From a bacterium (GTDB lineage: Bacteria; RBG-13-61-14; DATKZS01): a DNA stretch of 64,000 bases. The stretch lies in contig DATKZS010000196.1 of NCBI GenBank assembly GCA_035527835.1, positions 1,058 through 65,057 of the forward strand. Reading direction: 5' to 3'. Numbering within the stretch: the first letter of the stretch is position 1; every line of letters begins with the position of its first letter. Below are positions 14,075 to 32,528 of this stretch, in pieces. The notes beneath the pieces are model-generated. The model did no database searches, was not told the origin of the DNA, and saw only the letters and a program-made list of their open reading frames with translations. The position numbers and the translations under genes were made by a program.

Positions 14075-14294
14075 GGCGGAGAAATTACGGGAGGGAATGG
14101 ACGGGAAAGGCGGGATGGGGAACGGGACCGGAAAGGGGAGCGCGGGGAGAAGAATGAGAAGGATAATGTTAAATGTTAAGACCTGATCCCAATCCCATGC
14201 CAATCCCCATGCCAATCCCCACCACCAATCCCCACCAACAGCCCCTTGAGACCAGAAGCCGCTTTTTCCAAATATAATTAGAGAGGGTAGGAAA

Positions 14295-15497: not shown

Positions 15498-15618
15498 AAA
15501 GAAATTATTTATGTTCATCCGGTTAAAGAGTACTTTTGCTGATGAAGATGAAGCAGTCTCATCTTAAAATATTCATTATCACGATATCCATAAGCCTGTC
15601 TTTTCAGTGGGGATTGGG

Positions 15619-15712
15619 GTCATCTATAAAAGTCCCAGTCAAGACAAATCTCTCTTTTCCTGAAGACAAATTTTCTTCATCTGGGAAGGGCTCCCCCCTC
15701 GCCATCGCCGCT
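15619..15712 (+). repeat. X module of the composite 3' block (copy 1)
   Basis: TCATCTATAAAAGTCCCAGTCAAGACAAATCT...CTGGGAAGGGCTCCCCCCTCGCCATCGCCGCTG. Second copy at 17991-18085. Confidence 0.75.
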
Positions 15713-15820
15713 GTGCGGGATCGGGATCGGGGGTCAGGTCTCGACATTAGACATTTGTTTACGTATTCAGGGTATGTTTAATCAACCCTTACCGGGTTGG
15801 GCGGTGGTGATGGGATTGTG

Positions 15821-15880
15821 TCCCAGGGTAGGCCGAAGACGGCCAACCCTGGGCTATTTTATGTTTGCCCTTTCAGGGAG
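15821..15880 (+). repeat. REP-like element, copy 1 (partial: central and right hairpins only)
   Basis: TCCCAGGGTAGGCCGAAGACGGCCAACCCTGGGCTATTTTATGTTTGCCCTTTCAGGG. Confidence 0.75.
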
Positions 15881-15980
15881 TAACAATAATGCCGCGGCCA
15901 GGGGATGCGAATTGTGTGGGTGGGGGTCAGACCCTTGTTTGACTGTTTAACGGGGCGGAATTTTTCAGCCGTCTTTATCT

Positions 15981-16080
15981 CGCCCTTTCAGGGCTGAAAA
16001 GGATATTTGGGGCGGCGATATCCCAGGGTAGGCCGGGGACGGCCAACCCTGGGCTATTTTATGTTTGCCCTTTAAGGGCG
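15981..16080 (+). repeat. REP-like triple-hairpin element, copy 2 (full)
   Basis: CGCCCTTTCAGGGC ... CCCAGGGTAGGCC-loop-GGCCAACCCTGGG ... GCCCTTTMAGGGCG. Lies 3' of gene 14295-15497. Confidence 0.8.
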
Positions 16081-16139
16081 TAACAATAATGCCGCGGCCA
16101 GGGGATGCGAATCGGGAGAGGTTGTGGCGGGCATCAAAG

Positions 16140-16345
16140 AAAGGTTTGTGGTTTGAGGTTTGTGGTTTGTGGTTGAAGAAAGGAGATTGAACCACGAAGG
16201 CACGAAGGTAGGAAAAGAGGTTTGTGGTTTGAGGTTTGTGGTTTGTGGTTTAATAGCCAAACCTCAGACCTCAGACCTCAAGCCTCACACCTCAAACCTC
16301 AATCCTCGCGCCCGGACCTCAAACCCCAAACCTCACACCTCAAAC
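16140..16345. repeat. octamer-repeat tract pair (GGTTTGWGG arms then CCTCAAACC arms)
   Basis: Tandem 8-mers on one strand followed by their complement. Part of composite block I. Confidence 0.75.
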
Positions 16346-16440
16346 CTCATCTCCCTTGATTCATGATGCTTGATCGGGCATAGTTGGGCCATGTGGAGAA
16401 CAGGTTTGTGGTTTGGGGTTTGCGGTTTGTGGTTGAATAA

Positions 16441-17970
16441 ATGAAGATTCGGGATCAGGGCCGGGAATTGGAACGACAAACCACAAACGACAAACTTCGC
16501 GTTGGCCGGGGAGGTGCGGGGATGAAGGAACGGAGATTATGCGTTTTCATCAGCGGCGTGATTGTGGGAGCGGCTTTAGGCGTTGGGCTGGGGTGTCTTC
16601 GTCTGAAGAGCGTGGAGGCGGTGGTTCGGGAGCCGGAGGTCCCCGGGGAGTCACGGCTTGCCTATACCCCGCCTCCGGAGCCGAAGTTTTCCGCGGAGTT
16701 TGCGGCCAAGTACATGCCGGTGCTGCTGAGCATGATACAGCCTCAAATCGAAAAGGTGACGGATGATATTTACGTTGCCATGGGATACGCCATGGGCAAC
16801 GTGACCATGGTGATCACTGACGAGGGCCTGGTGATCATTGACACGACGGAGAGCGAGGACTCGGCGCGGAGGATCATGGCGGACTTCCGCAAGATCACGG
16901 AGAAGCCGGTGCGCTATATCATCTACACCCATTTTCATCCGGACCATAACCAGGGGACCCGGGCTTTTTATTCGGAGGGGGTCGAGATTATCGCGACCAG
17001 GGAATTTTTGAACTGGATCCACGGCGCCAATCCCGGACTGGGCGACCAACATTTTCGGCGCGTTCTGGACATACTGGGAGGGGCCGCGGAGCCGGAGTAT
17101 GCCTTCTCCATGCCTTTTTCCAGCCCCTACCTGAGCGCGGGAAAGGCGCCCGAGGCCATGATGCCGACCATTACCTTTGACGAGCAGTATTCTTTCAGCC
17201 TGGGCGGCAAGCGGTTCGATCTTTTCCACACGCGGGGGGAGACCGAAGACCATTTGGCGGTCTGGATGCCCGAGGAGCGGGCCTTGCACGTCGGAGACCT
17301 TTATTATCATTCCTTCCCCAACCTGGCGGGCATCATGCTGGAGGCCCGGCCGGTCCGCGGCTGGATGGCGTCGCTGTCGCGCTTCATCGCGCTTGGGCCG
17401 GAGTACCTCATCCTCGGCCACACCAAACCTCTTAAAGGCCAAAGCCATATCCAGGAGCACCTGGAGAACTATCTGGCCGCCATCCAGTACGTGCACGATG
17501 AGACTCTCCGATACATCAACAACGGCAAAAGCGTCGAAGAGGCGGTGGCCGGGATCAATCTTCCCGACAGCCTTGCCCGGCTGCCGTATCTGCAGGGGCT
17601 TTACGGCAGGGTGGACTGGTCGGTCCGGGACATCTACCACGCTTATGCCGGGTGGTACGACGGCTGGGGCGCCGGGCTCAATCCCCTGCCCGGGAAGTTC
17701 CGGGCCCGGGAGATCGTCGCGCTGGCCGGAGGAGCCGATAAAATCCTTTCCCGCGCCATCGCGCTCCAAAAGAACGGTGAATATCAGCTCTCCGCGGAAC
17801 TGTGCGACGTCGTCATCGCGGCCAACCCCCAAGACAAGCTGGCCCACACCGTCATGGCCTACGACATGCAATACCTCGCCTTCAGCTCCGACAACCTGCT
17901 CTGCATCGGCGCCTATCTGTCGGCGTACTCCATGCACATGAAGGCCGCAAAAACGGGCGCGGGAACGTGA
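16441..17970 (+). CDS. MBL-fold metallo-hydrolase, alkyl/aryl-sulfatase (SdsA1/BDS1)-like, N-terminal membrane anchor
   Basis: THFHPDH zinc motif, IIDT, and a downstream dimerisation-like region. The start may be the internal MKERRLCVF at 16522. Confidence 0.75.
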   Translation: MKIRDQGRELERQTTNDKLRVGRGGAGMKERRLCVFISGVIVGAALGVGLGCLRLKSVEAVVREPEVPGESRLAYTPPPEPKFSAEFAAKYMPVLLSMIQPQIEKVTDDIYVAMGYAMGNVTMVITDEGLVIIDTTESEDSARRIMADFRKITEKPVRYIIYTHFHPDHNQGTRAFYSEGVEIIATREFLNWIHGANPGLGDQHFRRVLDILGGAAEPEYAFSMPFSSPYLSAGKAPEAMMPTITFDEQYSFSLGGKRFDLFHTRGETEDHLAVWMPEERALHVGDLYYHSFPNLAGIMLEARPVRGWMASLSRFIALGPEYLILGHTKPLKGQSHIQEHLENYLAAIQYVHDETLRYINNGKSVEEAVAGINLPDSLARLPYLQGLYGRVDWSVRDIYHAYAGWYDGWGAGLNPLPGKFRAREIVALAGGADKILSRAIALQKNGEYQLSAELCDVVIAANPQDKLAHTVMAYDMQYLAFSSDNLLCIGAYLSAYSMHMKAAKTGAGT

Positions 17971-17990
17971 ATCAGGGATCGGGAATCGGG

Positions 17991-18085
17991 ATCATCTATA
18001 AAAGTCCCAGTCAAGACAAATCTTTCTTTTCCTGAAGACAAATTTTCTTCGTCTGGGAAGGGCTCCCCCCTCGCCATCGCCGCTG
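17991..18085 (+). repeat. X module of the composite 3' block (copy 2)
   Basis: About 95% identical to 15619-15712. Confidence 0.75.
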
Positions 18086-18230
18086 AAGCTTGGCGGCCCC
18101 GAGATTTCTTGCCTCGGCCGGTTCGCGCCGGGGATGGGGGATGGGGGTCAGACCCTTGTTTGACGGGGGATGGGGGTCAGACCCTTGTTTGACTGTTTAA
18201 CGGGGCGGAATTTTTCAGCCGTCTTTGTTT

Positions 18231-18330
18231 CGCCCTTTCAGGGCTGAAAAGGATATTGGGGGCGGCGATATCCCAGGGTAGGCCGCAGACGTCCAACCCT
18301 GGGCTATCTTATTTTTGCCCTTTCAGGGCG
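18231..18330 (+). repeat. REP-like triple-hairpin element, copy 3
   Basis: Near-identical to 15981-16080. Lies 3' of gene 16441-17970. Confidence 0.8.
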
Positions 18331-18546
18331 GAAGCAGGATAGCCCGCATAGCTTGCTATGGGGGTGGCCGGGGCCACGGGATGCGATTGCGGAGTCATTA
18401 TGGCGGGCATCAAAGAAAGGTTTGTGGTTTGAGGTTTGTGGTTTGTGGTTAAATACTCAAACTTCAGAGTGGGACAGCCCACATAGCGAGCTATGTGGGG
18501 TATCCGGTGGAGGGAATTTTTTTCGATGATGCGGCGGCGGTTCGGC

Positions 18547-18629
18547 CGTCCCGCCGGGACTTGATGGTTTTTTTCCGCCTGGTCCCCAGGAAAGAATTCC
18601 TGGGCTAATTTCAAGCCGTCCCGCCGGGA
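18547..18629. repeat. GTCCC-CGGGAC palindromic element, copy 1
   Basis: GTCCCGCCGGGAC ... CCCAGGAAAGAATTCCTGGG ... GTCCCGCCGGGAC. Confidence 0.7.
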
Positions 18630-18738
18630 CTAAAGGCCTCAAGACGGAAGGAGTAGCGGGTAGCGCGCAGCCAGGGAATACGAAGCTCCAAACCACAAAC
18701 CTCAAACCCCAAACCTCAAACCTCAACGCCTGCTGGTC

Positions 18739-18766
18739 TTGACAATGGAATTGATGCATCTATAAT
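18739..18766 (+). promoter_or_regulatory. consensus sigma70 promoter of the antitoxin-RelE operon (TTGACA-N16-TATAAT)
   Basis: Perfect -35 and -10 hexamers, 55 nt upstream of ATG 18821. Confidence 0.75.
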
Positions 18767-18820
18767 CGAATCAGGAGTGCGCTGGAAGGGCGCATCAAAT
18801 TCCGGAGGCGAGGAGATCAT

Positions 18821-19024
18821 ATGACCAATAGCGATGCCACGGCCGAGGTTTTTATCACGGCGCTGAAAGCCTTGCCCAAGACCGAGCGCGACGCGGTCCT
18901 GGTGCGCATCGCCCGGGACAAGGAATTCGCCCGCGACCTCCTCGACCTCGCCGTCATCTCCTCCCGCGGCCACGAACCCTCCCGTCCCTTCCGCGAATAC
19001 CTGGCGGCCAAAAGAAAAAAATGA
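18821..19024 (+). CDS. putative type II antitoxin (partner of RelE/ParE)
   Basis: 67 aa. Overlaps the downstream toxin by 4 nt (ATGA). Preceded by a consensus promoter and a GGAGG Shine-Dalgarno. Confidence 0.55.
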   Translation: MTNSDATAEVFITALKALPKTERDAVLVRIARDKEFARDLLDLAVISSRGHEPSRPFREYLAAKRKK

Positions 19025-19275
19025 ACGCCAAGCGCGCCTACGCCGTCAGCATCAAGCGCTCGGCGGAAAAGGAAATGGACCGCCTGCCCGCGGACATCTT
19101 CGACCGCATCGCCTCCGCAATCCTTGACCTCGAAACCAATCCCCGCCCTCCCGGATGTAAAAAGCTCCGGGGCATCGAAGAATACCGCCTCCGGGTCGGG
19201 CCGTATCGAGTCCTCTATACCATTGACGATCCCGGGAAAAAGGTATTCATCATATCGGTGGGCCATCGCCGGTAA
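19021..19275 (+). CDS. RelE/ParE-family toxin
   Basis: 84 aa. YRVLYTID...KVFIISVGHRR C-terminus characteristic of RelE/ParE. Confidence 0.8.
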   Translation: MNAKRAYAVSIKRSAEKEMDRLPADIFDRIASAILDLETNPRPPGCKKLRGIEEYRLRVGPYRVLYTIDDPGKKVFIISVGHRR

Positions 19276-19356
19276 GTTTACCGCGGCATTTGATGCGCGC
19301 TTTGTGGTTATGGGACCGGCTCCGGTAAAGTCGCTCCCTCAGGCTGGAGACGGGTC

Positions 19357-20817
19357 TTACTCGATGCTTGCGGCCATGACTCGATAGACGAGCGCGATGC
19401 GTCCGTCGCGGTTGAAGGCTCGGAGGAAGAGGTAGGTTAGCCTGAATTTGCCTTGTGGGGTCGTGACCACGGTGTCGCGGTTTTTTGCTGACTTCAGGAA
19501 TCCGAAGCGCTGCCAGTCCACCTGCGAGATGTTGAGCCACACGATCAAGCCCACGTCATGCGTGAGCACCTGCTCCAACACAAAACGGTCCGGGTCATCG
19601 CCTGGCTTGATTTCTCCCCAAGTGTAGGCCTCCCGGCCGGTGGTGTACTTGAAGATCAGCGGGTTCTGCCCCAGCACCGCTTCTTCGCCGGGAACTTGGC
19701 GCAGCGACTTCGCGGCCTCCAGGATCGGGTCCCCCGGCAGCGCGGCCAGTCCGTAAAGATAAAGGCCGCTGACCGCCAGCAGCGGGACCAGCACGCCCGC
19801 CGCCGCGGCCGTCTTCATCCGCGGCTCCCGCTCCGGCCGGCGCGACGCGTCCCATTTCACGAAGCGGTCCAGGCCCAGCGCCGCCGGCGCGAGCACCGCC
19901 GGCATCAGCGCCAGCAGGAACCGGTCCTGGTACCACCACCAGATGACGTGCAGGCCCGTGTAGAGCGCGGCGAACCCGGCGAGGTAAATGAGCCACTTAC
20001 GTTGGAGCCGGGCCAGGCCCAGGGCCGCGGCGGCCAGGGCCACCGGCCCGAAGTCCTTGACCAGGCCCAGGCCGATCTCGGCCAGGTGGAGATGTAACAC
20101 CACCAACTCCAGCCAATAGGAGGTCCTGCTCAGCGTTCCGTAGGTCAAAAGGTTCCGGATCAGCCACGGCGACGCCGCCAGCGCCGTTCCCGCGAGCCCC
20201 TTGATCACGGCGCGTCCGCTGCCGAGGTTGGCGATCACGAACACCAGGACCAGCAGGTAACCCTCGTACCTGGTGATCATGGCAAGCCCCAGCATGAGCC
20301 CCGCCGTAAAAAAGCGCTCCGTGCTCAGCAGCCAGTAAGACAGCAACAGCAGCAGCGTGAAGATGGGCATCACGTTCACGTCCCGGTACTGGTCCCAGCC
20401 CACCGCCATCAGCGCCAGCGCCGCCGCCGCCGTCAGCGCCGCCCAGCGCGAGGCCTGGAGGCGCCGCGCCAGCAGGAACAGGAGCGGAGGCAACATGGCC
20501 CCGCAGCCGACGCTGACCGCCTGCCCCCATTTCTCCACCCCGATCGCGCCGCCCGCCGCCAGGTTGAATAACGCCATCAGGAACGGATAAAACGGCAGGA
20601 ACTTGGCGTACGGCTCTCCCATAACCACGTACCCGCCGCGAAACAGGTTCTCGGCAAGCTCGATGTAAGTAAAACCGTCCGGCGTGACCACGCGGAAAAA
20701 CCAGGCGAGCGCGCCATAGCCCAGCAACCCCGCGCCCAGCAGGATCATCGCGATGCCGCGGTCAGAAGCGGCGTCCCGGCTGTCCGTGCAAATGTTCAGC
20801 AGCTCGTTCCCCCTCAA
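19357..20817 (-). CDS. GT39/GT83-like (PMT/ArnT family) membrane glycosyltransferase
   Basis: DGFTYIELAENL DE-motif in the first periplasmic loop. At least 10 TM helices. The start may be the internal MILLGAGLL. Confidence 0.7.
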   Translation of the reverse strand: MRGNELLNICTDSRDAASDRGIAMILLGAGLLGYGALAWFFRVVTPDGFTYIELAENLFRGGYVVMGEPYAKFLPFYPFLMALFNLAAGGAIGVEKWGQAVSVGCGAMLPPLLFLLARRLQASRWAALTAAAALALMAVGWDQYRDVNVMPIFTLLLLLSYWLLSTERFFTAGLMLGLAMITRYEGYLLVLVFVIANLGSGRAVIKGLAGTALAASPWLIRNLLTYGTLSRTSYWLELVVLHLHLAEIGLGLVKDFGPVALAAAALGLARLQRKWLIYLAGFAALYTGLHVIWWWYQDRFLLALMPAVLAPAALGLDRFVKWDASRRPEREPRMKTAAAAGVLVPLLAVSGLYLYGLAALPGDPILEAAKSLRQVPGEEAVLGQNPLIFKYTTGREAYTWGEIKPGDDPDRFVLEQVLTHDVGLIVWLNISQVDWQRFGFLKSAKNRDTVVTTPQGKFRLTYLFLRAFNRDGRIALVYRVMAASIE

Positions 20818-21467
20818 CTTTTCTGGAGTCCGGCGAGGTCCTTGTTGGCGCCGAGGATGACGAGGAGGTGGGAGGCCTTGATGCGGGTGTCGGGCTCGGG
20901 GATGAAGGTGATTTCCTCGGGGACCTTGTCGCGGATGGCGAGGATCTGGCAGTGGTAGCGCTTTCTGAATTCGAGTTCGAGCAGGGTCTTGCCGACCATT
21001 TCCTTGATGGGTATCATCTCGATGATTGAGAGGTCTGGTCCGAGGGGCAGGTAGTCGGCGATGTTGGCGCCGTGGAGGCTGGAGGCGATGCGGATGCCCA
21101 TGTCGCGCTCGGGGAAGACGATGCGCTGGACGCCGATGAGCTCGAGGATTTTGGCGTGGTCTTCGGAGAGGGCCTTGGCCACGATTTTCTTGACTCCGAG
21201 CTCGCGGAGGTGCATGGCGGCGAGGATGGATGATTCGAGCTTGTCGCCGAGCGACAGGACGACGGCGTCCATGCCGGTTAGGCCGAGCTGTTGGATGGCG
21301 CGGCGGTCGGTGGCGTCGGCGACCACGGCCTTGCTCACGTAGGCCTTGATCTTGTCCACCATGGTCTCGTCGTAATCAATGGCCAGGACGTCGCTTCCCA
21401 GCTCGGCGAGCTTGCGGGCCATGTAATAGCCGAAGCTGCTCATCCCGATTACCGCGATCTGCGCCAT
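20814..21467 (-). CDS. trkA: Trk/Ktr potassium-uptake NAD-binding subunit
   Basis: Rossmann motif IAVIGMSSFG, plus RCK_N and RCK_C domains. 217 aa. Confidence 0.9.
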   Translation of the reverse strand: MAQIAVIGMSSFGYYMARKLAELGSDVLAIDYDETMVDKIKAYVSKAVVADATDRRAIQQLGLTGMDAVVLSLGDKLESSILAAMHLRELGVKKIVAKALSEDHAKILELIGVQRIVFPERDMGIRIASSLHGANIADYLPLGPDLSIIEMIPIKEMVGKTLLELEFRKRYHCQILAIRDKVPEEITFIPEPDTRIKASHLLVILGANKDLAGLQKS

Positions 21468-21493
21468 TCTTCACCTCTCTATTAAAAGATTTT

Positions 21494-21580
21494 CAGACAG
21501 GATGAACAGGATCAACAGGATATTGGGAAGAGGCCATTTGCTTTTTTTCTCATCATCCTGTTAATCCTGTTAATCCTGTC
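21494..21580. repeat. AGGAT-nonamer palindrome, copy 2 (between trkH and trkA, upstream of the trkA start)
   Basis: GACAGGATGAACAGGATCAACAGGAT ... ATCCTGTTAATCCTGTTAATCCTGTC. Confidence 0.75.
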
Positions 21581-21617
21581 TAAAAAATTCTTCATGACTT
21601 CGGTCCGCCGCCCCACC

Positions 21618-23027
21618 CTACCCTATCATGATTTTCTCTTCCGGGAACTTGTAGGCCCGGCCGGCGCGGCGGCGCTCGAGCGCGAACACCAGGGTCAGGG
21701 GTCCGAGCCTGCCGATGAACATGAGGAGCGTGATGAGCAGGCGCCCGCCGTCGCTCAGGTCCGGCGTGATTCCGGTGGACAGGCCGACCGTGCCGAACGC
21801 CGAGACGCTCTCGAACAACAGCTCCATGAACAGGCGGCGGTCAAGGCCCAGCGCCGGGACCTCCACCTCCGCGATCAACAGGACCAGCACGATCAGCCCG
21901 ATCAGGAACAGGGACAGCAGCACCAGCGACAGCGAGTGATCAACGTCGCCGCGGCTCACCGACCGCCCGAACGCCGACGGCGCCGAGAAATTGCGCAGCC
22001 GCGACAGGACCACGATCAGGATCACGCCCGCGGTCGTGACCTTGACGCCGCCGGCCATGGAGCCCGGCGCCGCGCCGATGAACATGAGCACGATCAGCGC
22101 GAACAGCGAGGCGTCCGAGAGCTTCCCGATGTCAACGGTGTTGAACCCGGCGGTGCGGGCCGTGACCGACTGGAACAGGGAGCGGAGCGCGGCCTGGCCC
22201 CAGGGCATGCGCGCGAGCAGGTGGGGCCGCTCCAACCCGTAAAGCAACACCGCGCCGCCCACGATCAAGAGGAGCGTCATCGCCACCACGATCTTGGTAT
22301 GGAAGCTGATGCGGCGCTTGGCCGGGTCCGGGTCGCGCTTCAAGGTGTCCCACAAATCAACCAGCACGAAGAAGCCGATCCCGCCGAGCACGATCAGCGC
22401 CATGACCGTGAAGTTCACCGTCCCGTCGCCCGCGTACTTCATCAGGCTGTCCGCAAACGGCGAGAACCCGGCGTTGCAGAACGCCGACACCGAATGGAAC
22501 AAAGAGAGCCATAGCGCCCGCCCCCACGGATAGTCCCGCACCCACCGCGAAAACAACAGCACCAACCCCGCCCCCTCCGCGCAGAGCGTGAAGATCAGTG
22601 CCCGCGACAGCATCTCGGAGAGGCTGTAGCGCCGGAGCTTCAGAAACGACCCGCTGGCCGCGTCGCTCATCGAAAGCGGCGCCTTGCCCCGCATCATGAA
22701 CAGGATGAAGGTCCCGAACGTCATGATCCCGAACCCGCCGAACTGGATCATGCCAAGGATCGCGGCCTGGCCGAAGTCCGTGAACGCCGTGCCCGTGTCC
22801 ACCACCGTAAGCCCGGTCACGCACACCGCCGAAGTCGCCGTGAACAGAGCGTCAACAAAGCTCAAGGACTTGACGTGCGAGATCGGGAGCATCAGGACAA
22901 GGGCCCCAACCAGGATCACCGAGCCGAAGCTCAAGATGGCGAGCTGGCCCGCGTTCATCCGGCGCCAGACCTGGCTGAAAAATCGCCGCATGCAGGCAAT
23001 TGTAATGAGAGCGGGGAGGAGAGTCAA
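21618..23027 (-). CDS. trkH: Trk/Ktr potassium-uptake membrane subunit
   Basis: 469-aa polytopic protein with repeated pore-loop GxG segments typical of TrkH/KtrB. Start is uncertain because the 5' end abuts a GC-rich octamer repeat tract. Confidence 0.88.
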   Translation of the reverse strand: MTLLPALITIACMRRFFSQVWRRMNAGQLAILSFGSVILVGALVLMLPISHVKSLSFVDALFTATSAVCVTGLTVVDTGTAFTDFGQAAILGMIQFGGFGIMTFGTFILFMMRGKAPLSMSDAASGSFLKLRRYSLSEMLSRALIFTLCAEGAGLVLLFSRWVRDYPWGRALWLSLFHSVSAFCNAGFSPFADSLMKYAGDGTVNFTVMALIVLGGIGFFVLVDLWDTLKRDPDPAKRRISFHTKIVVAMTLLLIVGGAVLLYGLERPHLLARMPWGQAALRSLFQSVTARTAGFNTVDIGKLSDASLFALIVLMFIGAAPGSMAGGVKVTTAGVILIVVLSRLRNFSAPSAFGRSVSRGDVDHSLSLVLLSLFLIGLIVLVLLIAEVEVPALGLDRRLFMELLFESVSAFGTVGLSTGITPDLSDGGRLLITLLMFIGRLGPLTLVFALERRRAGRAYKFPEEKIMIG

Positions 23028-23029
23028 AA

Positions 23030-23160
23030 GGGGAGTGGGGCTTGAGGCCTGGGGCTTGGGGCTTGGGGCGTGAGGCCTGGGGCTTGGGGCGTGGGGCCTG
23101 GGGCTTGGGGCGTGAGGCCTGGGGCCTGGGGCTTGGGGCGTGAGGCGTGAGGCAAGAGCG
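23030..23160. repeat. GC-rich variant octamer tandem repeat (GGGGCKTG/AGGCCTGG)n, about 16 units
   Basis: Direct tandem array immediately upstream of the trkH 5' end. Confidence 0.8.
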
Positions 23161-23202
23161 CTTCATAGTTTACTGTTTCAATCTGATTGGCTCTTTTTCT
23201 AC

Positions 23203-23302
23203 AGCCCTGAAAGGGCAATAATAAGATAGCCCAGGGTTGGCCGTCCTCGGCCTACCCTGGGATATCGGCGTCCATAATATCCTTTTCAGCCCTGAAGGGG
23301 CG
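23203..23302 (-). repeat. REP-like triple-hairpin element, copy 4 (reverse orientation, 3' of the FmdE gene)
   Basis: Reverse complement matches the 15981-16080 copy over about 100 nt. Confidence 0.8.
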
Positions 23303-23431
23303 TAATAAAAACGGGCAATGGCATCTGAGATCAAACAAGGGAAGGCTTATTAATTCCGAAAAACTATAATGTTGCAGGCACGCGGCCCAGGTTTTCAACC
23401 TGTGCCCTCCCCAAACCTCAAACCCCAAACC

Positions 23432-24022
23432 TCAAACCTTTTCCGCGCACGGAATGCAGAGCACCTTGCCTTTCACTTTCCTCGTCCGCGTGTCCATCAC
23501 CGGCTCGCCGCAGGAGGCGCAGATCAGGCTCTGGTGGATCTCGGCCTCGGCGGGGAGCGTGATCCTCACGTTCTTGATGTTGAAGAGGTCATCGTCCTTG
23601 GCGGTGAGGAGCATTTTCACGCGGTCCTCGCGGCTGGGCGCGGGCCTGGCGAACACGTCCGGCCGGAGCGCCACCCGCACCGCTTTTCCGCCGGGCCTTT
23701 TCGCGAACGTGAACACCTGCTTGCCGTAGTCGCGGAAAAACAGGTTGCCCTTGCCGAAGGTCGCGCCCGTCAAGAACTGCACCGCGTCCACGGCACAGGA
23801 GTTGTTCTCCACGATGGCAATCAGCTCCTCGTCGCCCGACCGCCTCCCCCGGAGCCTCTTCATCCCCGCCTTCGCCGCCCGATAGCCGATCAGGAGCCCG
23901 GGGCAGAGGTGGCCGTGGAAGGAAACAACACCACTCAACTCTCTATTTAATTTCAACTCCTTTTTGCGGCTGTTTCTTGTCGTCATTAGGATCATACCTC
24001 CATTCTGCATGCTGGATTCCAC
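23432..24022 (-). CDS. FmdE/FwdE-family protein with C-terminal zinc ribbon
   Basis: FHGHLCPGLLIGYRA motif of PF02663. C-terminal CxxC...CxxC. Confidence 0.75.
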   Translation of the reverse strand: MESSMQNGGMILMTTRNSRKKELKLNRELSGVVSFHGHLCPGLLIGYRAAKAGMKRLRGRRSGDEELIAIVENNSCAVDAVQFLTGATFGKGNLFFRDYGKQVFTFAKRPGGKAVRVALRPDVFARPAPSREDRVKMLLTAKDDDLFNIKNVRITLPAEAEIHQSLICASCGEPVMDTRTRKVKGKVLCIPCAEKV

Positions 24023-24116
24023 CCTTCTGAACCTATGGCCAGCTATTATTCAGCCGACCCCTGGTGGTAATCTCTTTTAATGATGACGAATCCAGCATTA
24101 TGTTTCATTGGCGGAC

Positions 24117-25865: not shown

Positions 25866-25959
25866 GGTTAATCAGCCTTTCATGGCGCCTTCAGCGCTCA
25901 AAGAGCCGAGTGGAACCGCGTTCTTATCCAGCACGGGTCGCGCGGCGGAGCGGAATGGG

Positions 25960-26328
25960 TCAGAGCTTTGCAGCCAAATTCCTTTCTCGGTGCCTTGTCT
26001 CTTCAACCACCACGATGGTCCCCTTCTCCAGGGCGGACGTGGAATCCTTCAGGACTTTGCGGAGTCGCTCGATCACGTGTTCACTCCTGCAGTCATGAAG
26101 CCTGAAAATGACGACACTCACGAGACGACCACCAGAGAGGGAGATTATCTCCCCGAAATCGAGGTCAAAGGTCAGCAGGACCCTTTTTTCGGAAAAGGCC
26201 TTCTCGAATATGGCGCCGTTGGGGAGACGCTGCAGGTTTTCATCCCGGAGGTGGACAGCGTCGTGCCCTTCGGCGCGGAGATACTGCATCACGCGTTGTG
26301 ACACGCCCATGTCGGCAAGGAATCGCAT
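25960..26328 (-). CDS. DUF5615-family PIN-like putative toxin
   Basis: MRFLADMGVS...LLTFDLDFGE pattern. Lies immediately downstream of a DUF433 gene. Confidence 0.7.
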   Translation of the reverse strand: MRFLADMGVSQRVMQYLRAEGHDAVHLRDENLQRLPNGAIFEKAFSEKRVLLTFDLDFGEIISLSGGRLVSVVIFRLHDCRSEHVIERLRKVLKDSTSALEKGTIVVVEETRHRERNLAAKL

Positions 26329-26334
26329 CCGTCC

Positions 26335-26556
26335 CTACCCGGAATGAACTTCTTCCTGAGCGAGCCAGGCCGCGTATTCCAGGGACTGCTGGATGTCCTC
26401 CGGCTCCAAGTCGGGATAGTCGTCAAGGATCTCCCGTGGCGTTGCGCCGTGGGCGATCTGGCCCACGATCACTGAGACCGGGATCCTCATGCCCCGGATG
26501 CAGGCCCGGCCGCCCATGATCCCGGTATCAAAGGTTATGCGCTCGAATGTCTCCAT
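26335..26556 (-). CDS. DUF433-family putative antitoxin
   Basis: GGRACIRGMRIPV signature of DUF433. 73 aa. Confidence 0.75.
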   Translation of the reverse strand: METFERITFDTGIMGGRACIRGMRIPVSVIVGQIAHGATPREILDDYPDLEPEDIQQSLEYAAWLAQEEVHSG

Positions 26557-26664
26557 GACTTTTGCCTCCTCTGGTTATGTTAGCATATGAGAGCACCAAT
26601 CTATAAATAGAGCTAACTCCGTCCCTTCTTAACCTCAAACCCCAAACCTCAAACCACAAACCTC

Positions 26665-27849
26665 TCAATCATACCCGATGGACTTCATCCCGTTCGAGAG
26701 CACGTCCCTTGAGATGATGAGGCGCTGGATTTCGGAGGTTCCTTCATAGATGCGCATGGCCCGGACCTCGCGGTAGACGGCCTCGATGGGTCCTTCCTTC
26801 ATGTAGCCCATGCCGCCGAAGAGCTGAACCGCGCGGTCGGCGATGCGGCCGACGGCCTCGGTGCAGAAGAGCTTGACCATGCTGGCGCGGGCGCGGTCGC
26901 GGTCGCCCTGGTCCAGGCGCCAGGCGGAGTCGTAGACCATGGTCTTCATGGCGTAGAGCTCGGTGATCATGTCGGCCAACATCCACTGGATGGCCTGGAA
27001 CTCGGCGATGGGCTTGCCGAACTGGACGCGGACCTGGGCGTGCCCGCGGCAGAGCTCGATCAGCCGCCGCGAGATGCCGATGGAGCGCGCGCCCTGCGAC
27101 AGCCTCCCCTCTTCCAGCACCCGCATCGCGATTTCGAAGCCCTGGCCCTCCCGGCCCAAGAGGTTCGCGGCCGGGACCTCGCAGTCCTCGAAAATCAGCT
27201 CGCACTGCTTGCAGATGTCCGTGCCCATCGAGTCCTGGAGCTTCCCGATCGTGAAGCCCGGCGTGCCCTTCTCCACCACGAACGCGCTCATGCCCTTCCT
27301 GCCCTTTGACTTGTCCGTCACCGCCACCACCGTGTGCACGTCCGAGATGTCGGCCTTGGTGATGAAATGCTTCATGCCGTTGAGCACGTACTGGTCGCCC
27401 TTCTTGTCGGCCTTGGTGAGGATGGAGGACGCGTCGGAGCCGGCGTTGGGCTCGGTGAGCGCGAAGCACGAGAGCAGCTCGCCCGTTGCCATGCGCGGCA
27501 GGAACTTCTGTTTCTGCTCCTCGCTCCCGTAGTACACGAGGCCGAGCGAGCCGATGCCGATGTTGCCGCTGATTAAAAAGCAATAGGCCAGGTTGGCGCG
27601 CGCCAGCTCCTCCTGGATCAGCATGCACTCCACCGTGGACATGCCCATGCCGCCGTACTCCTGCGGCACCGTGATCCCGAACAGCCCCATCTCCTTCATC
27701 TGCGCCGCGATCTTGTCCGGAATCTTCTTCTCATGCTCCACCTGCTCATTGATCGGGATCAACTCCTTGTCCACGAACCGACGGATGTTGTCCCGCAATA
27801 CCCGGTACTCCTCGGGAAACTCGAAATCCATGTCACTCCTCCTTGATAA
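26665..27849 (-). CDS. acyl-CoA dehydrogenase
   Basis: 394-aa protein starting at MDFEFPEEY. ACAD N-terminal, middle and C-terminal domain motifs (CFALTEPNAGSD, YEGTSEIQRLII). Confidence 0.92.
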   Translation of the reverse strand, partial: LSRRSDMDFEFPEEYRVLRDNIRRFVDKELIPINEQVEHEKKIPDKIAAQMKEMGLFGITVPQEYGGMGMSTVECMLIQEELARANLAYCFLISGNIGIGSLGLVYYGSEEQKQKFLPRMATGELLSCFALTEPNAGSDASSILTKADKKGDQYVLNGMKHFITKADISDVHTVVAVTDKSKGRKGMSAFVVEKGTPGFTIGKLQDSMGTDICKQCELIFEDCEVPAANLLGREGQGFEIAMRVLEEGRLSQGARSIGISRRLIELCRGHAQVRVQFGKPIAEFQAIQWMLADMITELYAMKTMVYDSAWRLDQGDRDRARASMVKLFCTEAVGRIADRAVQLFGGMGYMKEGPIEAVYREVRAMRIYEGTSEIQRLIISRDVLSNGMKSIGYD

Positions 27850-28093
27850 TGGTGTTACACCTCGATCACCCGGCCACCGGCCGGAGGCCGCCTCCCACAT
27901 TCCCCGCGGCCAGATGTAACATATCAGGGCGGGGCGGGGATAATCAAGAAGGGAGCAGGCAAGGCGGGTTGCGCAGTGCAGCCCCGGGAGGGGCGGGCGA
28001 AAGTAGCCCAGCAATTCATTGCTGGGTGGGCCGGCAGCACCGATGCCCCGAGTCCCGGAGGGACGACCGAGTCTTGCTCAACTCATGATCGTC

Positions 28094-28177
28094 CGTCCCT
28101 ACGGGACTTGGCGGTTTTTTCCCGCCCAGTTCCCAGGAATAAATTCCCGGACTACTCTCGAAATGTCCCTCCGGGAC
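28094..28177. repeat. GTCCC-CGGGAC palindromic element, copy 2
   Basis: GTCCCTACGGGAC ... CCCAGGAATAAATTCCCGG ... GTCCCTCCGGGAC. Confidence 0.7.
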
Positions 28178-28270
28178 TACAATACTTCAAGGCCAGAAAG
28201 TTCTGAAATTCAGTAACACTTGAATCATGGCGATGGTTAATCATTGAAGAGATCAAACGACGGATTCCGC

Positions 28271-28510
28271 TCAGCCCGTCAGCTTTATTTTTTCCGACTG
28301 GCCGGAGACCTGGTTGACGAATTCGAGCAGGCCGGAGGGGGAGGAGGCGAGCTGGTCGTTGGCGTTGAGGAATTCGATGCCGTAGACGGAGCCGTCGGGC
28401 GCGATGTCAACGTTGAGCTCATCGCTGATATGGAGAGTTGTGACCTCCGCGCCGTTCTCGCGGAGCCGGAGATAAGCAATGTTGTATTTGGGATCATAAG
28501 TCAGCTTCAT
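28271..28510 (-). CDS. DUF2283-family protein (solitary)
   Basis: MKLTYDPKYNIAYLRL...IEFLNAN typical of DUF2283. No DUF4258 partner is adjacent. Confidence 0.6.
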   Translation of the reverse strand: MKLTYDPKYNIAYLRLRENGAEVTTLHISDELNVDIAPDGSVYGIEFLNANDQLASSPSGLLEFVNQVSGQSEKIKLTG

Positions 28511-28758
28511 GGGCGTCCCTCCCGGCCATGCGCGTTATCGCCTGAGGGTGAATCCGAACGTTCATCGTAATGTTCATTCTAACTTATCATGCCGGTGATT
28601 TTCAATCTTACATCGAAGTTAACGATTCAGCCGCCTCGATAAAGGAGAGATCAATGAAAGCGGCGTCATGCCGCCGCACTCCAGGGTTATTTTTGAACCT
28701 CCTCCCGGGATGGTGTATGTTGAAGGGTACTTTATTTTTTCCGGGAGGTATTTTCAAG

Positions 28759-29829
28759 ATGGCCCTCAAGATCGCGGTCAAGAAAACCGACCAGCCCGGC
28801 GCGCTGCCGCCGGACGATGCGCTCGGGTTCGGCAAGATTTTCACCGACCACATGTTCATCATGGATTACACCAAGGGCAAGGGCTGGCACGACGCGCGGA
28901 TCGTTCCTTACGGCCCGTTCGTGCTGGACCCGGCCACCATCATGCTCCATTACGGCCAGGCCACGTTCGAGGGGCTCAAGGCCTTCCACGCCGGCGACCG
29001 CATCCAGCTCTTCCGGCCGCAGGCCAACATCCTGCGCATGAACAAGTCCAACGCGCGCGTGTGCATCCCGCCGCTGGATCCTGACGACCACCTCCAGGCC
29101 ATCACCGCGCTGGTCGGACTGGAGAGCCGCTGGGTGCCCAGGAACGAAGGCACCGCGCTCTACATCCGGCCGACCGTGATCGCGACCGAGCCGTTCATCG
29201 GGGTGCACGTGTCGGACCGCTACATTTTCTTCATCATCCTGTCGCCGGTGGGGGCGTACTACAAGGAGGGGTTCAGCCCGGTGAAGATCCTGGTGGAGGA
29301 CGAGTACATCCGGGCGGCGGCGGGCGGTCTCGGCGAGGCCAAGACGCCGGCGAATTACGCGGCCAGCCTGCTGGCGGCGGAGAAGGCGCAGAAAAAGGGG
29401 TTCACCCAGGTGCTGTGGCTCGACGGGGTCGAGCGCAAGTGGATCGAGGAAGTGGGCACCATGAACATCTTCTTCCTGATCGGCGACGAGCTGGTCACGG
29501 CGCCGCTCGCCGGGACCATCCTCCCCGGCGTGACCCGCGACAGCGTGCTCAAGCTCACGCGCGAATGGGGCCTGAAGGTTTCCGAGCGCAGGCTCTCGAT
29601 TGGCGAGGTGATGAAGGCCGCGCAAGACGGGTCGCTCCAGGAGTGCTTCGGCACGGGCACGGCCGCGATCATCTCCCCGGTCGGCTCGCTCACTTACAAG
29701 GACCAGACGGTTTCGGTGACCGGCGGCAAGGTCGGGCCCTTGGCGCAAAAACTCTACGACACCATCACCGGCATCCAGTACGGCAAGCTCAAGGACCCGT
29801 ACGGGTGGACCGTGGTGGTGGAGACGTGA
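28759..29829 (+). CDS. ilvE: branched-chain amino acid aminotransferase
   Basis: Class IV aminotransferase motifs (FEGLKAF, EVGTMNIFF, GTILPGVTR). ATG at 28759 with a GGGAGG Shine-Dalgarno. Confidence 0.92.
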   Translation: MALKIAVKKTDQPGALPPDDALGFGKIFTDHMFIMDYTKGKGWHDARIVPYGPFVLDPATIMLHYGQATFEGLKAFHAGDRIQLFRPQANILRMNKSNARVCIPPLDPDDHLQAITALVGLESRWVPRNEGTALYIRPTVIATEPFIGVHVSDRYIFFIILSPVGAYYKEGFSPVKILVEDEYIRAAAGGLGEAKTPANYAASLLAAEKAQKKGFTQVLWLDGVERKWIEEVGTMNIFFLIGDELVTAPLAGTILPGVTRDSVLKLTREWGLKVSERRLSIGEVMKAAQDGSLQECFGTGTAAIISPVGSLTYKDQTVSVTGGKVGPLAQKLYDTITGIQYGKLKDPYGWTVVVET

Positions 29830-29881
29830 AGAGAGTAGCAAGTAGCCGGTAGCCAGTAGCAAGGGGAAGACGGCGTGCAGA

Positions 29882-29912
29882 GGGACGGCGGAAGGGGCCG
29901 TCCCTTTTTATT
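29882..29912 (+). terminator. rho-independent terminator after ilvE
   Basis: GGGACGGC-GGAAGG-GGCCGTCCC followed by TTTTTATTT. Confidence 0.6.
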
Positions 29913-29997
29913 TGCGCGCAAGAAAACTTATGATGTTGATGGGCGTTATTGGAGCTTGAAGCAAGGTGACCGCAATCAAGGGACGGGAGGGAAGGCC

Positions 29998-32271
29998 ATG
30001 AAAAACGCGGGCTGGAAGATATGGGCGGCGGCGGTGCTGCTGGGGCTGGCGGCGTGCACGAGCGGGGCGGGGGGAGGCAATAAGCCGATCTCGCTCCTGC
30101 CGGCGTTTTCGGGCGAGGACCTGGCGGCGAAGCTGGGGAGCTATTACGCGCCGGTGCGGTCCGACGTGCAGCCGAGCGTGCCCGCATATAACCTTCCCCT
30201 CGCGCCCGCGGACATTCAGAACCTCGACGACGTGCTCGCCAAGATCGGCCTCGCCGTCCCCGCCCGCGACAAGCTGCTTCAGAACGGCTTTGCCACCGTC
30301 TCCTTCGGCAGCCTGGACGACATCGTCGCGGCCTACGACCGGATCAAGGAGCTGGAGATGCCGGTGTTCGTCACCACCGACTCCGTGCTCCACTTGTACC
30401 ACATCCAGTTCGACGAGACGCTGCGGGTGATCGAGGAGAAGGAATTTTATCCGGACCTCACGGCCCTGACCCGCGTGTTCCGGGCCGAGATGGAAAAGCG
30501 GTATGGAGCGAGCAAGGGCCTGGAGAAGACGGCGTACAAGAAGGGCCTCGCCTATTTCGCGGTGGCGGAGAAGCTGCTCGACCCCGAGGCCCGGGTCCCG
30601 GCGTCAGTGCAAGATTGGGTGGACACCGAGCTCGGCTACATCGAAAAGCACGGGGGCTTCGAGGACAGCCCGATCTTCACCTACCGGGAGGACTACTCGC
30701 AGTACGTCCCGCGCGGGCATTATACGAGGAGCGAGGAGCTGAAAAGGTACTTCAAGGCCATGATGTGGTACGGCCGGCTGACCATGCTGATCAAGGGCAG
30801 CGACGAGAGCGGGCCGGACGCGCATTTTGACGCGCTGGTCTCGAAGGAAGAGGCGCAGGCGCAGACCATGCTGGGCGCGGCCATCGCCTCTCTGTTCGGC
30901 GAGCTTCAGGTGGGCGACCGGAGCGCGGCCCAGGTGTGGGAGCGCATCTACGCGGTGACGGCTTACTACGTGGGCCTGGCCGACGACCTCACCCCGCAGG
31001 ACTACGTCAAGGCGCTCGGCGAGGTGTTCGGCGACAAGTTCGAGCCGGGCGCGTTGGCCGACCCCGCCGTCTTCGGGAAGTTCCAGGACCGGATCGCGCG
31101 CCTGAAGCCGCCGGCCATTTACAGCGGCACCGGCGAGTCCGGGGTCAACATGGACCTGCAGCCGGACCGCGCGCTCTCGCCCGAGCAGCTCGACCGCATC
31201 CTCGGCAAGACCATGGGCTTCCGCATGATGGGCCAGCGCTACATTCCCGATTCCTACATCCTGGGCCAGTTGGTGGCGCCGGTGGTGGGCAGCGGACTGG
31301 GCGCGCCGGCCTTTACCACGGTCATGATCCCCGACTTCGGCCCCATCCGCGGCTTTCCCCGCGGGCTCGACGTCATGGCCGTGCTCGGCTCCGACCGTGC
31401 GCTCGCGGTCATGGACTCGCTTGGCGACACCAACTACGCCAAGTACCAGGACCAGATGAAGAAGCTCCGCGACGAGTTCGGAAAGATCTCCGTCTCCGAC
31501 TGGAACCGCAACCTTTATTGGTCCTGGCTTTACGCGCTGAAGGGATTGACCGAGCCGACCCGCGGCCCGGGCTGGCCCACCTTCATGACCACCGATACCT
31601 GGGCCGACAAGCAGCTCAACGCCGCGCTCGGCTCCTGGTCCAGCCTCCGCCACGACACCATCCTCTACGCCAAGCAGAGCTACACCCCCACCATCACCGC
31701 CGAGTCGGCCCCTCCGCCGCGGCCTAGCCCCAAGCCGGTGGTCGGCTACGTCGAGCCGGCGCCCGAGTTCTACGCGCGGCTGGTCGCGCTCACCCGCATG
31801 AGCGAGAAGGGACTCAAGGAGATGAAGGTGCTCGATGACGAATCGCTGGGCCGGCTCCAGTCGCTGGGGGCGATCCTGGCGCGGCTGCAGGCGCTTTCGG
31901 AAAAGGAGCTGAAGAACGAGGAGCTGACGGAAGAGGACTACGCATTCATCCGGAATTTCGGCGAGCGCCTGTCGGCGGTGGTGAGCGGCGCTTCCGAGGC
32001 GGGCCAGAAAACGACGCTGATCGCGGACGTGCACACGGACCAGAACACCGGCCAGGTGCTGGAGGAAGGCACGGGGTATCTCAGGCTGATGCTGGTGGCC
32101 TACAAGCTGCCGCAGGGCCACGTCCTGGTCGGCGCCGGGCCCGTCTTCTCCTACTACGAGTTCAAGCACCCCATGTCCGACCGCCTCACCGACGAGAAAT
32201 GGCGGACCATGCTGCAGGGCCGGGACCAGCCCAGGCTGCCGGAATGGACGGGAAGCTTCGCGGCGGAGTGA
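29998..32271 (+). CDS. secreted lipoprotein of unknown function (possibly DUF3160-like)
   Basis: Lipoprotein signal MKNAGWKIWAAAVLLGLAAC. 757-aa mature protein. GGGAGGG Shine-Dalgarno. Family name is from memory only. Confidence 0.65.
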   Translation: MKNAGWKIWAAAVLLGLAACTSGAGGGNKPISLLPAFSGEDLAAKLGSYYAPVRSDVQPSVPAYNLPLAPADIQNLDDVLAKIGLAVPARDKLLQNGFATVSFGSLDDIVAAYDRIKELEMPVFVTTDSVLHLYHIQFDETLRVIEEKEFYPDLTALTRVFRAEMEKRYGASKGLEKTAYKKGLAYFAVAEKLLDPEARVPASVQDWVDTELGYIEKHGGFEDSPIFTYREDYSQYVPRGHYTRSEELKRYFKAMMWYGRLTMLIKGSDESGPDAHFDALVSKEEAQAQTMLGAAIASLFGELQVGDRSAAQVWERIYAVTAYYVGLADDLTPQDYVKALGEVFGDKFEPGALADPAVFGKFQDRIARLKPPAIYSGTGESGVNMDLQPDRALSPEQLDRILGKTMGFRMMGQRYIPDSYILGQLVAPVVGSGLGAPAFTTVMIPDFGPIRGFPRGLDVMAVLGSDRALAVMDSLGDTNYAKYQDQMKKLRDEFGKISVSDWNRNLYWSWLYALKGLTEPTRGPGWPTFMTTDTWADKQLNAALGSWSSLRHDTILYAKQSYTPTITAESAPPPRPSPKPVVGYVEPAPEFYARLVALTRMSEKGLKEMKVLDDESLGRLQSLGAILARLQALSEKELKNEELTEEDYAFIRNFGERLSAVVSGASEAGQKTTLIADVHTDQNTGQVLEEGTGYLRLMLVAYKLPQGHVLVGAGPVFSYYEFKHPMSDRLTDEKWRTMLQGRDQPRLPEWTGSFAAE

Positions 32272-32376
32272 GGCGAAGATAGAATCAAGAATCAAGAATA
32301 CAGAATCGAGAAGATAGGAGTCAGTCGTCCGCGGTGTTCCGGGTGCGCTGTTTTAAGCTGGCCGTCTCTTTTTCGG

Positions 32377-32477
32377 GCGCCCTGAAAGGGCAATAATAAG
32401 ATAGCCCGGGGTTGGCCGTCTTCGGCCTACCCTGGGTTATCGGCGACAATAATATCCTTTTCAGCCCTGAAGGGGCG
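32377..32477 (-). repeat. REP-like triple-hairpin element, copy 5 (reverse orientation, 3' of the OYE gene)
   Basis: Reverse complement matches the other copies. Confidence 0.8.
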
Positions 32478-32528
32478 TAATCAAAGCGGGCAATGGTATC
32501 TGAGATGCGACATGATCAGGCTTAATAA

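Follow-up and report, generated by a model that had tools for sequence, protein, structure and literature searches.

Bacterial miniature inverted-repeat transposable elements (MITEs), such as the Correia/NEMIS elements of Neisseria and the ERIC sequences of enterobacteria, are non-coding DNAs of 100-350 bp that are bounded by inverted termini, occupy intergenic regions in either orientation, and form long hairpins when they are transcribed. A different type of dispersed palindrome, the repetitive extragenic palindromic (REP) sequence tagged with GTAG, has been found together with its head-to-head dimers in Opitutus terrae and R. baltica (Di Nocera et al., 2013, PMC3733652). A third point of comparison is the Acido-Lenti-1 motif (Rfam RF01687), which was described in Acidobacteria and Lentisphaerae, where it sometimes occurs near group II introns (Weinberg et al., 2010, PMC2864571). 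Here we analyze a repeated element with three hairpins that is found in a 64,000-nt stretch of DNA (contig DATKZS010000196.1; hereafter the window) belonging to a bacterial metagenome-assembled genome (MAG). An earlier note on this DNA had described five copies of the element as REP-like and had assigned them a role at the 3′ ends of mRNAs. Comparison with related genomes points instead to insertions that are specific to the window lineage, and the architecture of the element connects it to Acido-Lenti-1.

The central hairpin of the element occurs five times in the window, exactly as had been reported, at 15822, 16022 and 18272 on the plus strand and at 23230 and 32405 on the minus strand. No match to this pattern is expected by chance, and none was found in 100 dinucleotide-preserving shuffles. 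The sequence GCCCTTTCAGGGC, allowing at most one mismatch, is present nine times in the window versus 0.18 times expected, and each occurrence is a flanking hairpin of one of these five copies, which we name c1 to c5 by position and which can be aligned across ~115 nt. Matches to a covariance model of the unit, R1, together with the positions of the first (H1), central and third (H3) hairpins, define the plus-strand copies as c1 (15769-15891; H1 15783-15799, central hairpin 15822-15853, H3 15867-15879; 81.8 bits), c2 (15966-16091; H1 15982-15994, central hairpin 16022-16053, H3 16067-16079; 97 bits; repeat family D9) and c3 (18216-18341; H1 18232-18244, central hairpin 18272-18303, H3 18317-18329; 95.5 bits). 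Copy c1 had been regarded as partial, but R1 matches it over its full length; its first hairpin is a variant, CAACCCTTACCGGGTTG, rather than GCCCTTTCAGGGC. On the minus strand, c4 is a complete, MITE-like copy spanning 23171-23367, with a core unit at 23192-23317 (H1 23289-23301, central hairpin 23230-23261, H3 23204-23216; 104 bits; repeat family D8). Alignment with an orthologous locus, L050, defines c5 as a second complete copy at 32334-32546, with a core unit at 32367-32492 (H1 32464-32476, central hairpin 32405-32436, H3 32379-32391). The plus-strand copies are related by more than their hairpins, as c2 is a 200-nt tandem duplicate of the 3′ half and flank of c1, and the block 15609-16177 is paralogous to 17981-18453, with flanks that are found nowhere else in the DNA fetched for this study. 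Judged by their sequences, c1, c2 and c3 are not independent but are local duplicates of one another, and this tandem and block duplication reduces the five window copies to about three independent events.

Each unit of ~120 nt consists of H1, a ~25-nt spacer, the central hairpin, a linker of 10-13 nt starting with CU(A), and H3. The central hairpin is composed of CCCAGGG-UAG, a variable stem, and CAA-CCCUGGG-CU, and is closed by a 4-nt NNGA loop whose first two bases differ among c1-c5. Its stem, which had been counted as 13 bp, does have 13 positions, but pairing is not uninterrupted and comprises 8 bp, a conserved A·A mismatch and a further 5 bp. Inside this stem the sequence GTAG is invariant, but it is not free, being paired with CAAC (T-A, A·A, G-C). 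In the window lineage, a U-rich tract with the consensus CUAUYUUAUUWUU (or, in its shorter form, CUAUYUUAU) follows the 3′ side of the central hairpin on the element strand only, and this U-rich linker is missing from most other genomes. Minimum free energy folds of the window copies extend the central stem by GAUA/UAUC, but other genomes do not conserve this extension, and it was dropped from the model.

An exact-pattern scan for the central hairpin of the c1-c5 type (type I), conducted with one genome per species, revealed 43 loci in 12 genomes. The carriers include the complete genome of the Verrucomicrobiae member OY969777 (~20 loci) and representatives of Akkermansiaceae, Methylacidiphilales, 'Spartobacteria' and Gemmataceae, as well as another Planctomycetota MAG. 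When R1 was run on these loci and on the window, 114 non-redundant units were identified in the resulting 13 genomes. They are arranged mostly as head-to-head (-,+) dimers with abutting H1 ends (~45), and several form -+-+ arrays; the two partners of a dimer differ in their distal stems. By our own gene calls the arrays are intergenic in 58 of 61 cases, with 28 in co-directional, 11 in convergent and 8 in divergent spacers. Viral contigs yielded no copy of the hairpin, and hence no sign of a phage vector. In addition, we scanned metagenome contigs with a lineage-specific 20-mer and obtained 23 loci, mostly from the sample that holds the window's contig, in which R1 detects 19 more type I monomers of the same subfamily. 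No consistent association with particular genes was seen in the window, in the 13 genomes or at the metagenome loci. The window lineage contains at least 24 copies, whose core identity ranges from 81 to 98% (median 89% for 20 copies).

The predicted fold is supported by sequence variation. In a 22-sequence alignment, 92.9% of cells pair and 11 pairs change on both sides, and the covariation score of this alignment was reached by none of 500 shuffles. Among 107 distinct units, several H3 positions exhibit three or four of the standard pair types (GC, CG, AU, UA), and the distal central stem covaries too. The 20-nt base of the central hairpin is almost invariant across phyla, and the A·A mismatch is retained in 101 of the 107 units, which come from Verrucomicrobiota, Planctomycetota and the window's MAG. 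Units fold significantly better than shuffled sequences (z from -2.9 to -5.2), with both strands folding comparably, and wobble pairs in the 107 units carry no strand signal, as G·U pairs number 43 and A·C pairs 45. The covariation therefore indicates that the fold is under selection, whereas the equivalence of the two strands means that nothing marks one of them as the transcribed strand.

At the gathering threshold, no Rfam family covers c1-c5. In a relaxed search, however, RF01687 (gathering score 37) aligns with c3 (18272-18330; 26.8 bits) and c1 (19.3 bits), whereas c2, c4 and c5 fall below the reporting limit. The same model passes its threshold at two other window sites, 45480-45525 on the plus strand (41.5 bits) and 27980-28026 on the minus strand (41.3 bits). 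These two sites belong to a set of four units, absent from the earlier note, that carry the three-hairpin layout with a shorter central stem, and which we designate type II. One unit, at 18532-18642 (+), has the short central hairpin CCCAGGAAAGAATTCCTGGG and carries GTCCCGCCGGGAC as both flanking hairpins; R1 matches it with 27.8 bits (E = 2.5e-5), and it exhibits blastn similarity to 28089-28179 and 45436-45528. Two more form a head-to-head dimer at 27969-28189, with units at 27969-28075 (-) and 28079-28189 (+) that are also matched by R1, and the fourth lies at 45422-45536 (+; R1 16.6 bits). Detection is thus reciprocal, as R1 recovers all four type II units. The alignment with RF01687 spans model positions 1-46, and both types conform, in the same order and with the same spacing, to the RF01687 layout of an 8-bp hairpin (CCYAG...CURGG), a ~12-nt linker containing CUA, and a 5-bp GC hairpin. 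Moreover, when published Acido-Lenti-1 seeds are viewed with their flanks, an H1 hairpin is present ~24 nt upstream, and tandem arrays recur ~200 nt apart.

This shared layout, together with the reciprocal detection, identifies the c1-c5 type as a divergent, type I branch of the Acido-Lenti-1 family. The low RF01687 scores of type I copies (19-27 bits) result from the lengthening of the central stem by the invariant UAG/CAA segment and the variable distal stem. What the two have in common, then, is a hairpin that opens with CC[CU]AG and closes with CU[GA]GG, a CUA-type linker of ~12 nt, a short GC hairpin, and the occurrence of many copies per genome, including tandem arrays at ~200-nt intervals. 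They differ in that the Rfam model omits H1 and the dimer organization, and in that Acido-Lenti-1 was described as a presumed small RNA, whereas in Verrucomicrobiota, Planctomycetota and the window's MAG the behavior of the family is that of an insertion element. No Rfam annotation is present on 18 loci carrying roughly 50 type I units, and a literature search with the hairpin sequence returned only unrelated primer sequences. Matches to microRNAs in the sub-threshold Rfam search are spurious, being caused by inverted heptamer arrays at 16209-16356.

Evidence for gain by insertion comes from relatives with 80-85% identity, in which the sites corresponding to c3, c4, c5 and the type II dimer are empty. 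In the contigs of these relatives, including 21.6 kb of syntenic DNA, R1 detects no copies. At the c3 locus, blastn and reading of the junction reveal that in L049 (85% DNA identity) the sulfatase stop codon leads directly into sequence homologous to 18332-18411. The block that is missing from L049 (17975-18333 on the plus strand, 359 nt) begins right after the sulfatase stop and ends 2-4 nt past H3, and it comprises the module D20 (17981-18085), two 29-mers (18136-18193) and c3. An 82% sulfatase orthologue (L047/L048) lacks synteny and was used only as an element-absent control. At the c5 locus, the spacer between the OYE and DUF3160 genes is 64 nt long and without an element in L050, versus 257 nt in the window, to which ~213 nt (32334-32546) have been added. 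Here the element landed in the last codons of OYE and supplies a new C terminus and stop codon (32529-32531), such that the ...KKKSKIEDE* ending of the ortholog is replaced by ...HKKDRSS* in the window; the old C-terminal codons and stop persist as a remnant at ~32315-32330 beside c5. The relative that provides L050 also has, in L053, an FmdE-TrkH spacer that measures 84 nt and includes a small hairpin, versus ~400 nt, with heptamer arrays and c4, in the window. Likewise, the spacer between the ACAD and aminotransferase genes, which holds the type II dimer in the window, is 142 nt long in this relative versus 890 nt (27848-28737) in the window. These comparisons show that the window copies are lineage-specific insertions, and they suggest that intergenic DNA has been expanded generally by repeats in the window lineage. 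Insertion polymorphism of this kind between related genomes is also characteristic of Correia and ERIC elements.

The ends of the inserted DNA were sought by aligning 22 lineage copies with their flanks. Similarity reaches ~65 nt 5′ of H1 and ~35 nt 3′ of H3 and then stops, at TAGTGTATCCGAATTA on the left and at GATTGAWACAC-TA on the right, which constitute short inverted termini with TA outside. Canonical copies of the window lineage are accordingly ~195-225 nt long and have the inverted termini TAGTGTATC and GATACACTA flanked by TA. Copy c4, read in the orientation of the element, begins with TA followed by GTTTTTCGGAATTA and ends with GATTGAAACAG followed by TA, in the context TTA-TA-GTTTTTC...GAAACAG-TA-AAC. 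In OY969777, nine near-identical copies of ~345 bp, each consisting of a dimer with arms, have sharp ends and the inverted termini GAGCAWWTYAA. TA is present at both ends of most OY969777 copies and of several copies in the window lineage. The Correia terminus, TA followed by TAGTGGATTAA, is comparable to element termini that start with TAGTG- and have TA at their ends.

All five window copies do lie just downstream of the stop codon of a same-strand gene, as the earlier note had observed, but this position is not exclusive, since at three of the four loci the following gene runs in the same direction, which places the element equally upstream of it. Copies c1 and c2 occur between the gene at 14295-15497 and the sulfatase gene (both plus), c3 between the sulfatase gene and a ParDE-like operon (both plus), c4 between FmdE and TrkH (both minus), and c5 between the convergent DUF3160 and OYE genes. 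The type II units follow no such pattern; the unit at 45422-45536 is antisense between co-directional minus-strand genes for a VWA protein and a TPR protein (strands by Pfam), and the dimer at 27969-28189 occupies the divergent ACAD/aminotransferase spacer. For the additional metagenome copies, gene strands were assigned by a codon-usage gene caller, with a Pfam check on nine flanking genes that covered five of the co-directional loci. Between co-directional genes, eight of these new copies are antisense and one is sense, and the others reside between convergent or between divergent genes. The proposed rule of a fixed orientation 3′ of a gene is thereby contradicted on the terms that the note itself had set. 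Given the antisense majority, the copies in divergent spacers and the duplication that links c1-c3, the inference of a fixed-orientation 3′-untranslated region (UTR) element is refuted; five same-sense copies in one window did not make an orientation rule. The mixed orientations, the empty orthologous sites and the small number of independent events, about three, likewise run counter to the proposal of a 3′-UTR stabilizer or terminator "rather than random insertion". An intrinsic terminator combines a GC hairpin with a U tract oriented with the upstream gene, and the family does not conform to this arrangement, as its U tail is limited to one lineage and eight of the nine new co-directional copies are antisense. 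Terminator activity could occur at sense copies that have the U-rich tract, although it would offer no explanation for the family as a whole.

Neither the window nor any of the loci was found to contain a transposase with matching termini; the terminus pattern is present there only at copies of the element, and we know of no cognate transposase. The earlier note had suggested a search for a REP-associated tyrosine transposase (RAYT), and one RAYT-like open reading frame (ORF) does exist in OY969777, at L039:4274-4726 on the minus strand, but it is not flanked by the element. This ORF encodes the motifs MPDHLHLL and YVLHNPVRAGLV (HUH and YxxxNP, respectively) and has a Pfam Y1_Tnp match of 23.0 bits; the rsfS gene intervenes between it and the nearest dimer. 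It adjoins a different, canonical GTAG REP, GTAGGGACGGCAGTCCCCTGCCGTCC (L039:4238-4263), which is found again at L006:3346-3358. In all loci and the window, which together make up ~530 kb of DNA carrying the element, a motif scan detected no other RAYT motifs. The gene upstream of REP GTAGGGACGGCAGTCCCCTGCCGTCC uses the TAG of this REP as its stop codon, and the L039 copy of the REP lies in an AT-rich segment. OY969777 also contains another repeated element, with the terminus TACCAATTCTAAATTGAATTTAGTCTAAACAATCCGTCATCCTGAGC, that is inserted at TA in or beside small hairpin loops of several of our units (OY969777.1 loci L020, ~4560-4600; L023, 1735-1889; L026, 1003-1156; and the right flank of L033). 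These positions indicate that the hairpins serve as targets for insertion, in the way that REPs are targeted by some insertion sequence (IS) elements.

The interpretation that we favor, and to which we would give an about even chance, is that the repeat is a non-autonomous, hairpin-rich intergenic element of MITE- or BIME-like character (BIME, bacterial interspersed mosaic element) with a core homologous to Acido-Lenti-1. Its copies would spread by transposition in trans, for which the TA-flanked inverted termini suggest an enzyme of the IS630/Tc1 type, and would persist where they are tolerated, in spacers and at the extreme 3′ ends of genes; c1-c3 would have been multiplied afterwards by local duplication. 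A protein probably recognizes the near-invariant hairpin base, A·A mismatch included, and would read it in single-stranded, folded form, and a terminator or mRNA-stabilizing effect, plausible for sense copies only, would be a by-product. Several observations weigh against this interpretation, including the failure to find a matching transposase. The inverted termini are short (9-10 nt) and degenerate; c1-c3 are without termini and look like local segmental duplicates; and Planctomycetota dimers stop just past their outer hairpins with no visible inverted termini. The flanking TA could be part of the termini rather than a duplicated target site, the junction at c5 is not a clean one, and no pair of filled and empty sites was close enough in sequence to reveal a duplication. 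Across phyla the internal core is better conserved than the ends, an unusual state for a MITE, and hairpin covariation, as a sign of selection on the fold, is equally expected of a functional RNA or of the target of a single-strand-specific HUH enzyme. Finally, the extra metagenome contigs share their sample and the element subfamily with the window, but are not proven to be from the same genome.

The GTAG sequence immediately 5′ of a variable stem-loop, together with a conserved, strand-specific mismatch, raises the unlikely alternative of a REP/BIME-type element moved by a RAYT of the HUH Y1 class, which would read the central hairpin with its GTAG and A·A in folded single-stranded form, in the way that TnpA-REP recognizes E. 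coli REPs. The head-to-head dimers and alternating arrays resemble REPINs (REP doublets forming hairpins) and BIMEs, GTAG-tagged REPs with head-to-head dimers have been reported in the Planctomycetes-Verrucomicrobia-Chlamydiae (PVC) group (PMC3733652), OY969777 does contain a RAYT-like ORF, and the targeting of hairpin loops by other insertion elements is known for REPs. Yet the L039 gene is paired with another REP and not flanked by our element, no second RAYT occurs in the ~530 kb scanned, GTAG is base-paired within a larger stem and is not an unpaired tag, the unit measures 120 nt with three hairpins and not 20-40 nt, and two lineages have inverted termini flanked by TA. It is also conceivable, if unlikely, that the conserved hairpin is a candidate site for a strand-specific enzyme or host factor acting on folded single strands, and that Acido-Lenti-1-type elements would then form a distinct mobile or domesticated class marked by a conserved internal hairpin and not by conserved termini, neither classical RAYT-REP nor ordinary DDE-MITE.

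A functional structured RNA, whether an Rfam small RNA or a 3′-UTR terminator or stabilizer, would account for copy number by function and not by mobility. Covarying hairpins, high conservation of the motif across phyla, folding energies below those of shuffles (z -2.9 to -5.2) and the U-rich CUAUYUUAUUWUU after the central hairpin in the window lineage would all agree with an RNA, as would the FmdE-TrkH spacer, whose expanded DNA carries c4 in sense orientation and lacks the ancestral hairpin GCCGGCATCCTGCCGGC. We nevertheless judge this reading rather improbable, given the ratio of eight antisense copies to one sense copy, an antisense type II unit in a co-directional run, the symmetric head-to-head dimers that make up most members, the near-equal folding of the two strands, the balance of G·U (43) and A·C (45) pairs, the absence of the U-rich linker from most other genomes, the lack of a constant gene partner, and the empty orthologous sites of close relatives. 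Alternatively, a structural or topological factor of the host could bind the repeat as DNA, much as integration host factor (IHF), gyrase and Pol I bind E. coli BIMEs, and the repeat could spread by recombination or gene conversion and not by transposition. An invariant 20-nt hairpin base across phyla does suggest a conserved trans-acting partner, and the local duplication of c1-c3 and the mosaic of other repeated intergenic modules nearby would suit such a process, but copies with defined ends and inverted termini on many contigs, an insertion within a coding 3′ end, and close relatives that are copy-free over 21.6 kb of syntenic DNA make it very unlikely. In the window the hairpins lie 3′ of genes, are imperfect, keep a conserved mismatch and vary at the tip, which also recalls integron attC sites at the 3′ ends of gene cassettes. 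This last possibility is so improbable that we reject it on both sequence and context, as the required arms lack the R''/R' boxes (RYYYAAC / GTTRRRY), the neighbors are large housekeeping genes on both strands with irregular spacing, units occur in inverted dimers and divergent spacers, and no integrase is found among the window proteins scanned against Pfam.

The element can be placed among known repeat systems. With REPs, BIMEs and REPINs (Di Nocera et al., 2013, PMC3733652; Nunvar et al., 2010, PMC2817692) it shares multicopy, extragenic, GC-rich hairpins, head-to-head dimers and alternating arrays, GTAG by a stem-loop, mosaic modules, loops that serve as insertion targets, and occasional insertion at gene ends. 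The REP/BIME-like character proposed in the earlier note is therefore retained with respect to the extragenic, hairpin-rich repeats, their dimers and their arrays, but not with respect to a 3′-UTR function. The element departs from these systems in its length of ~120 nt and its three hairpins versus REPs of 20-40 nt, in the lack of a RAYT flanked by it, and in its TA-flanked termini in two lineages. Compared with Correia and ERIC elements, its triple-hairpin core is far more conserved across phyla than its termini, and many of its members are near-perfect foldback dimers without separate termini. Like the ends of IS200/IS605 elements and palindrome-associated transposable elements (PATEs), it has subterminal imperfect hairpins with strand-specific mismatches, which in those systems are recognized as single-stranded DNA; however, it is without an associated TnpA or TnpB, its dimer hairpins are inverted and not direct, and no conserved target tetranucleotide was detected.

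As GTAG REPs have already been reported in PVC bacteria, the kind of repeat is known; the novelty lies in the variant, in its connection to RF01687 and in how widely it occurs. A much larger, unannotated family in Verrucomicrobiota, Planctomycetota and related MAGs is thus tied to an orphan Rfam "sRNA" family that has had no known function since 2010. The true unit of the larger family has three hairpins and is usually dimeric, and empty sites provide direct evidence of its gain by insertion, so loci of this type should not by default be annotated as small RNAs or terminators. Elements of this family help to explain the greatly expanded intergenic spacers of the window lineage and can remodel the C termini of proteins. 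A single hairpin that stays invariant across phyla, fixed mismatch included, offers a concrete starting point in the search for the protein that recognizes it.

Other repeats abound in the same spacers. Tandem arrays of 7-nt repeats (GGTTTGT/GGTTTGA, CAAACCT, GGGGCKT, AGTAGCC, AGAATCA, AGGATCG and others) occupy many window spacers, and Tandem Repeats Finder reports ~35 rows with a period of 7. Examples are located at 16143-16174, 16219-16251 versus 16258-16349, 18419-18450, 18689-18726, 23030-23153, 23409-23439, 32281-32312 and 63603-63679. Some of these arrays form inverted pairs that yield long hairpins, one overlaps the FmdE stop codon, and several end just 5′ of promoter-like sites, as does 18689-18726 before 18739-18766. 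The arrays are absent from the orthologous spacer in L053 and present in L049.

The site at 18739-18766 is a perfect sigma-70 consensus promoter (TTGACA-16-TATAAT) ahead of a toxin-antitoxin pair of the ParDE type (18821-19024 and 19021-19275), the second gene of which has a Pfam ParE_toxin match; this operon is missing at the same locus in L049. Upstream of c1, the 400-amino-acid ORF at 14295-15497 has no Pfam match and was called by the source assembly but rejected by a gene caller trained on the long ORFs of the window, and it may be of foreign origin. The adjoining region at 11300-14250 is densely packed with repeat modules of 88-160 nt (families D3, D7, D11, D12 and D16), with only short ORFs between them, and near-consensus promoter-like sequences (TTGACA-16 nt-TATACT) are found at five positions, 11707, 11928, 13009, 13798 and 14040. 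Lastly, a small hairpin module, CCCRCATAGC-NN(NN)-GCTATGYGGG, is repeated 3′ of the sulfatase gene, at 18345-18368 and 18477-18508, and is conserved in L049 at 2235-2260 and 2322-2353.

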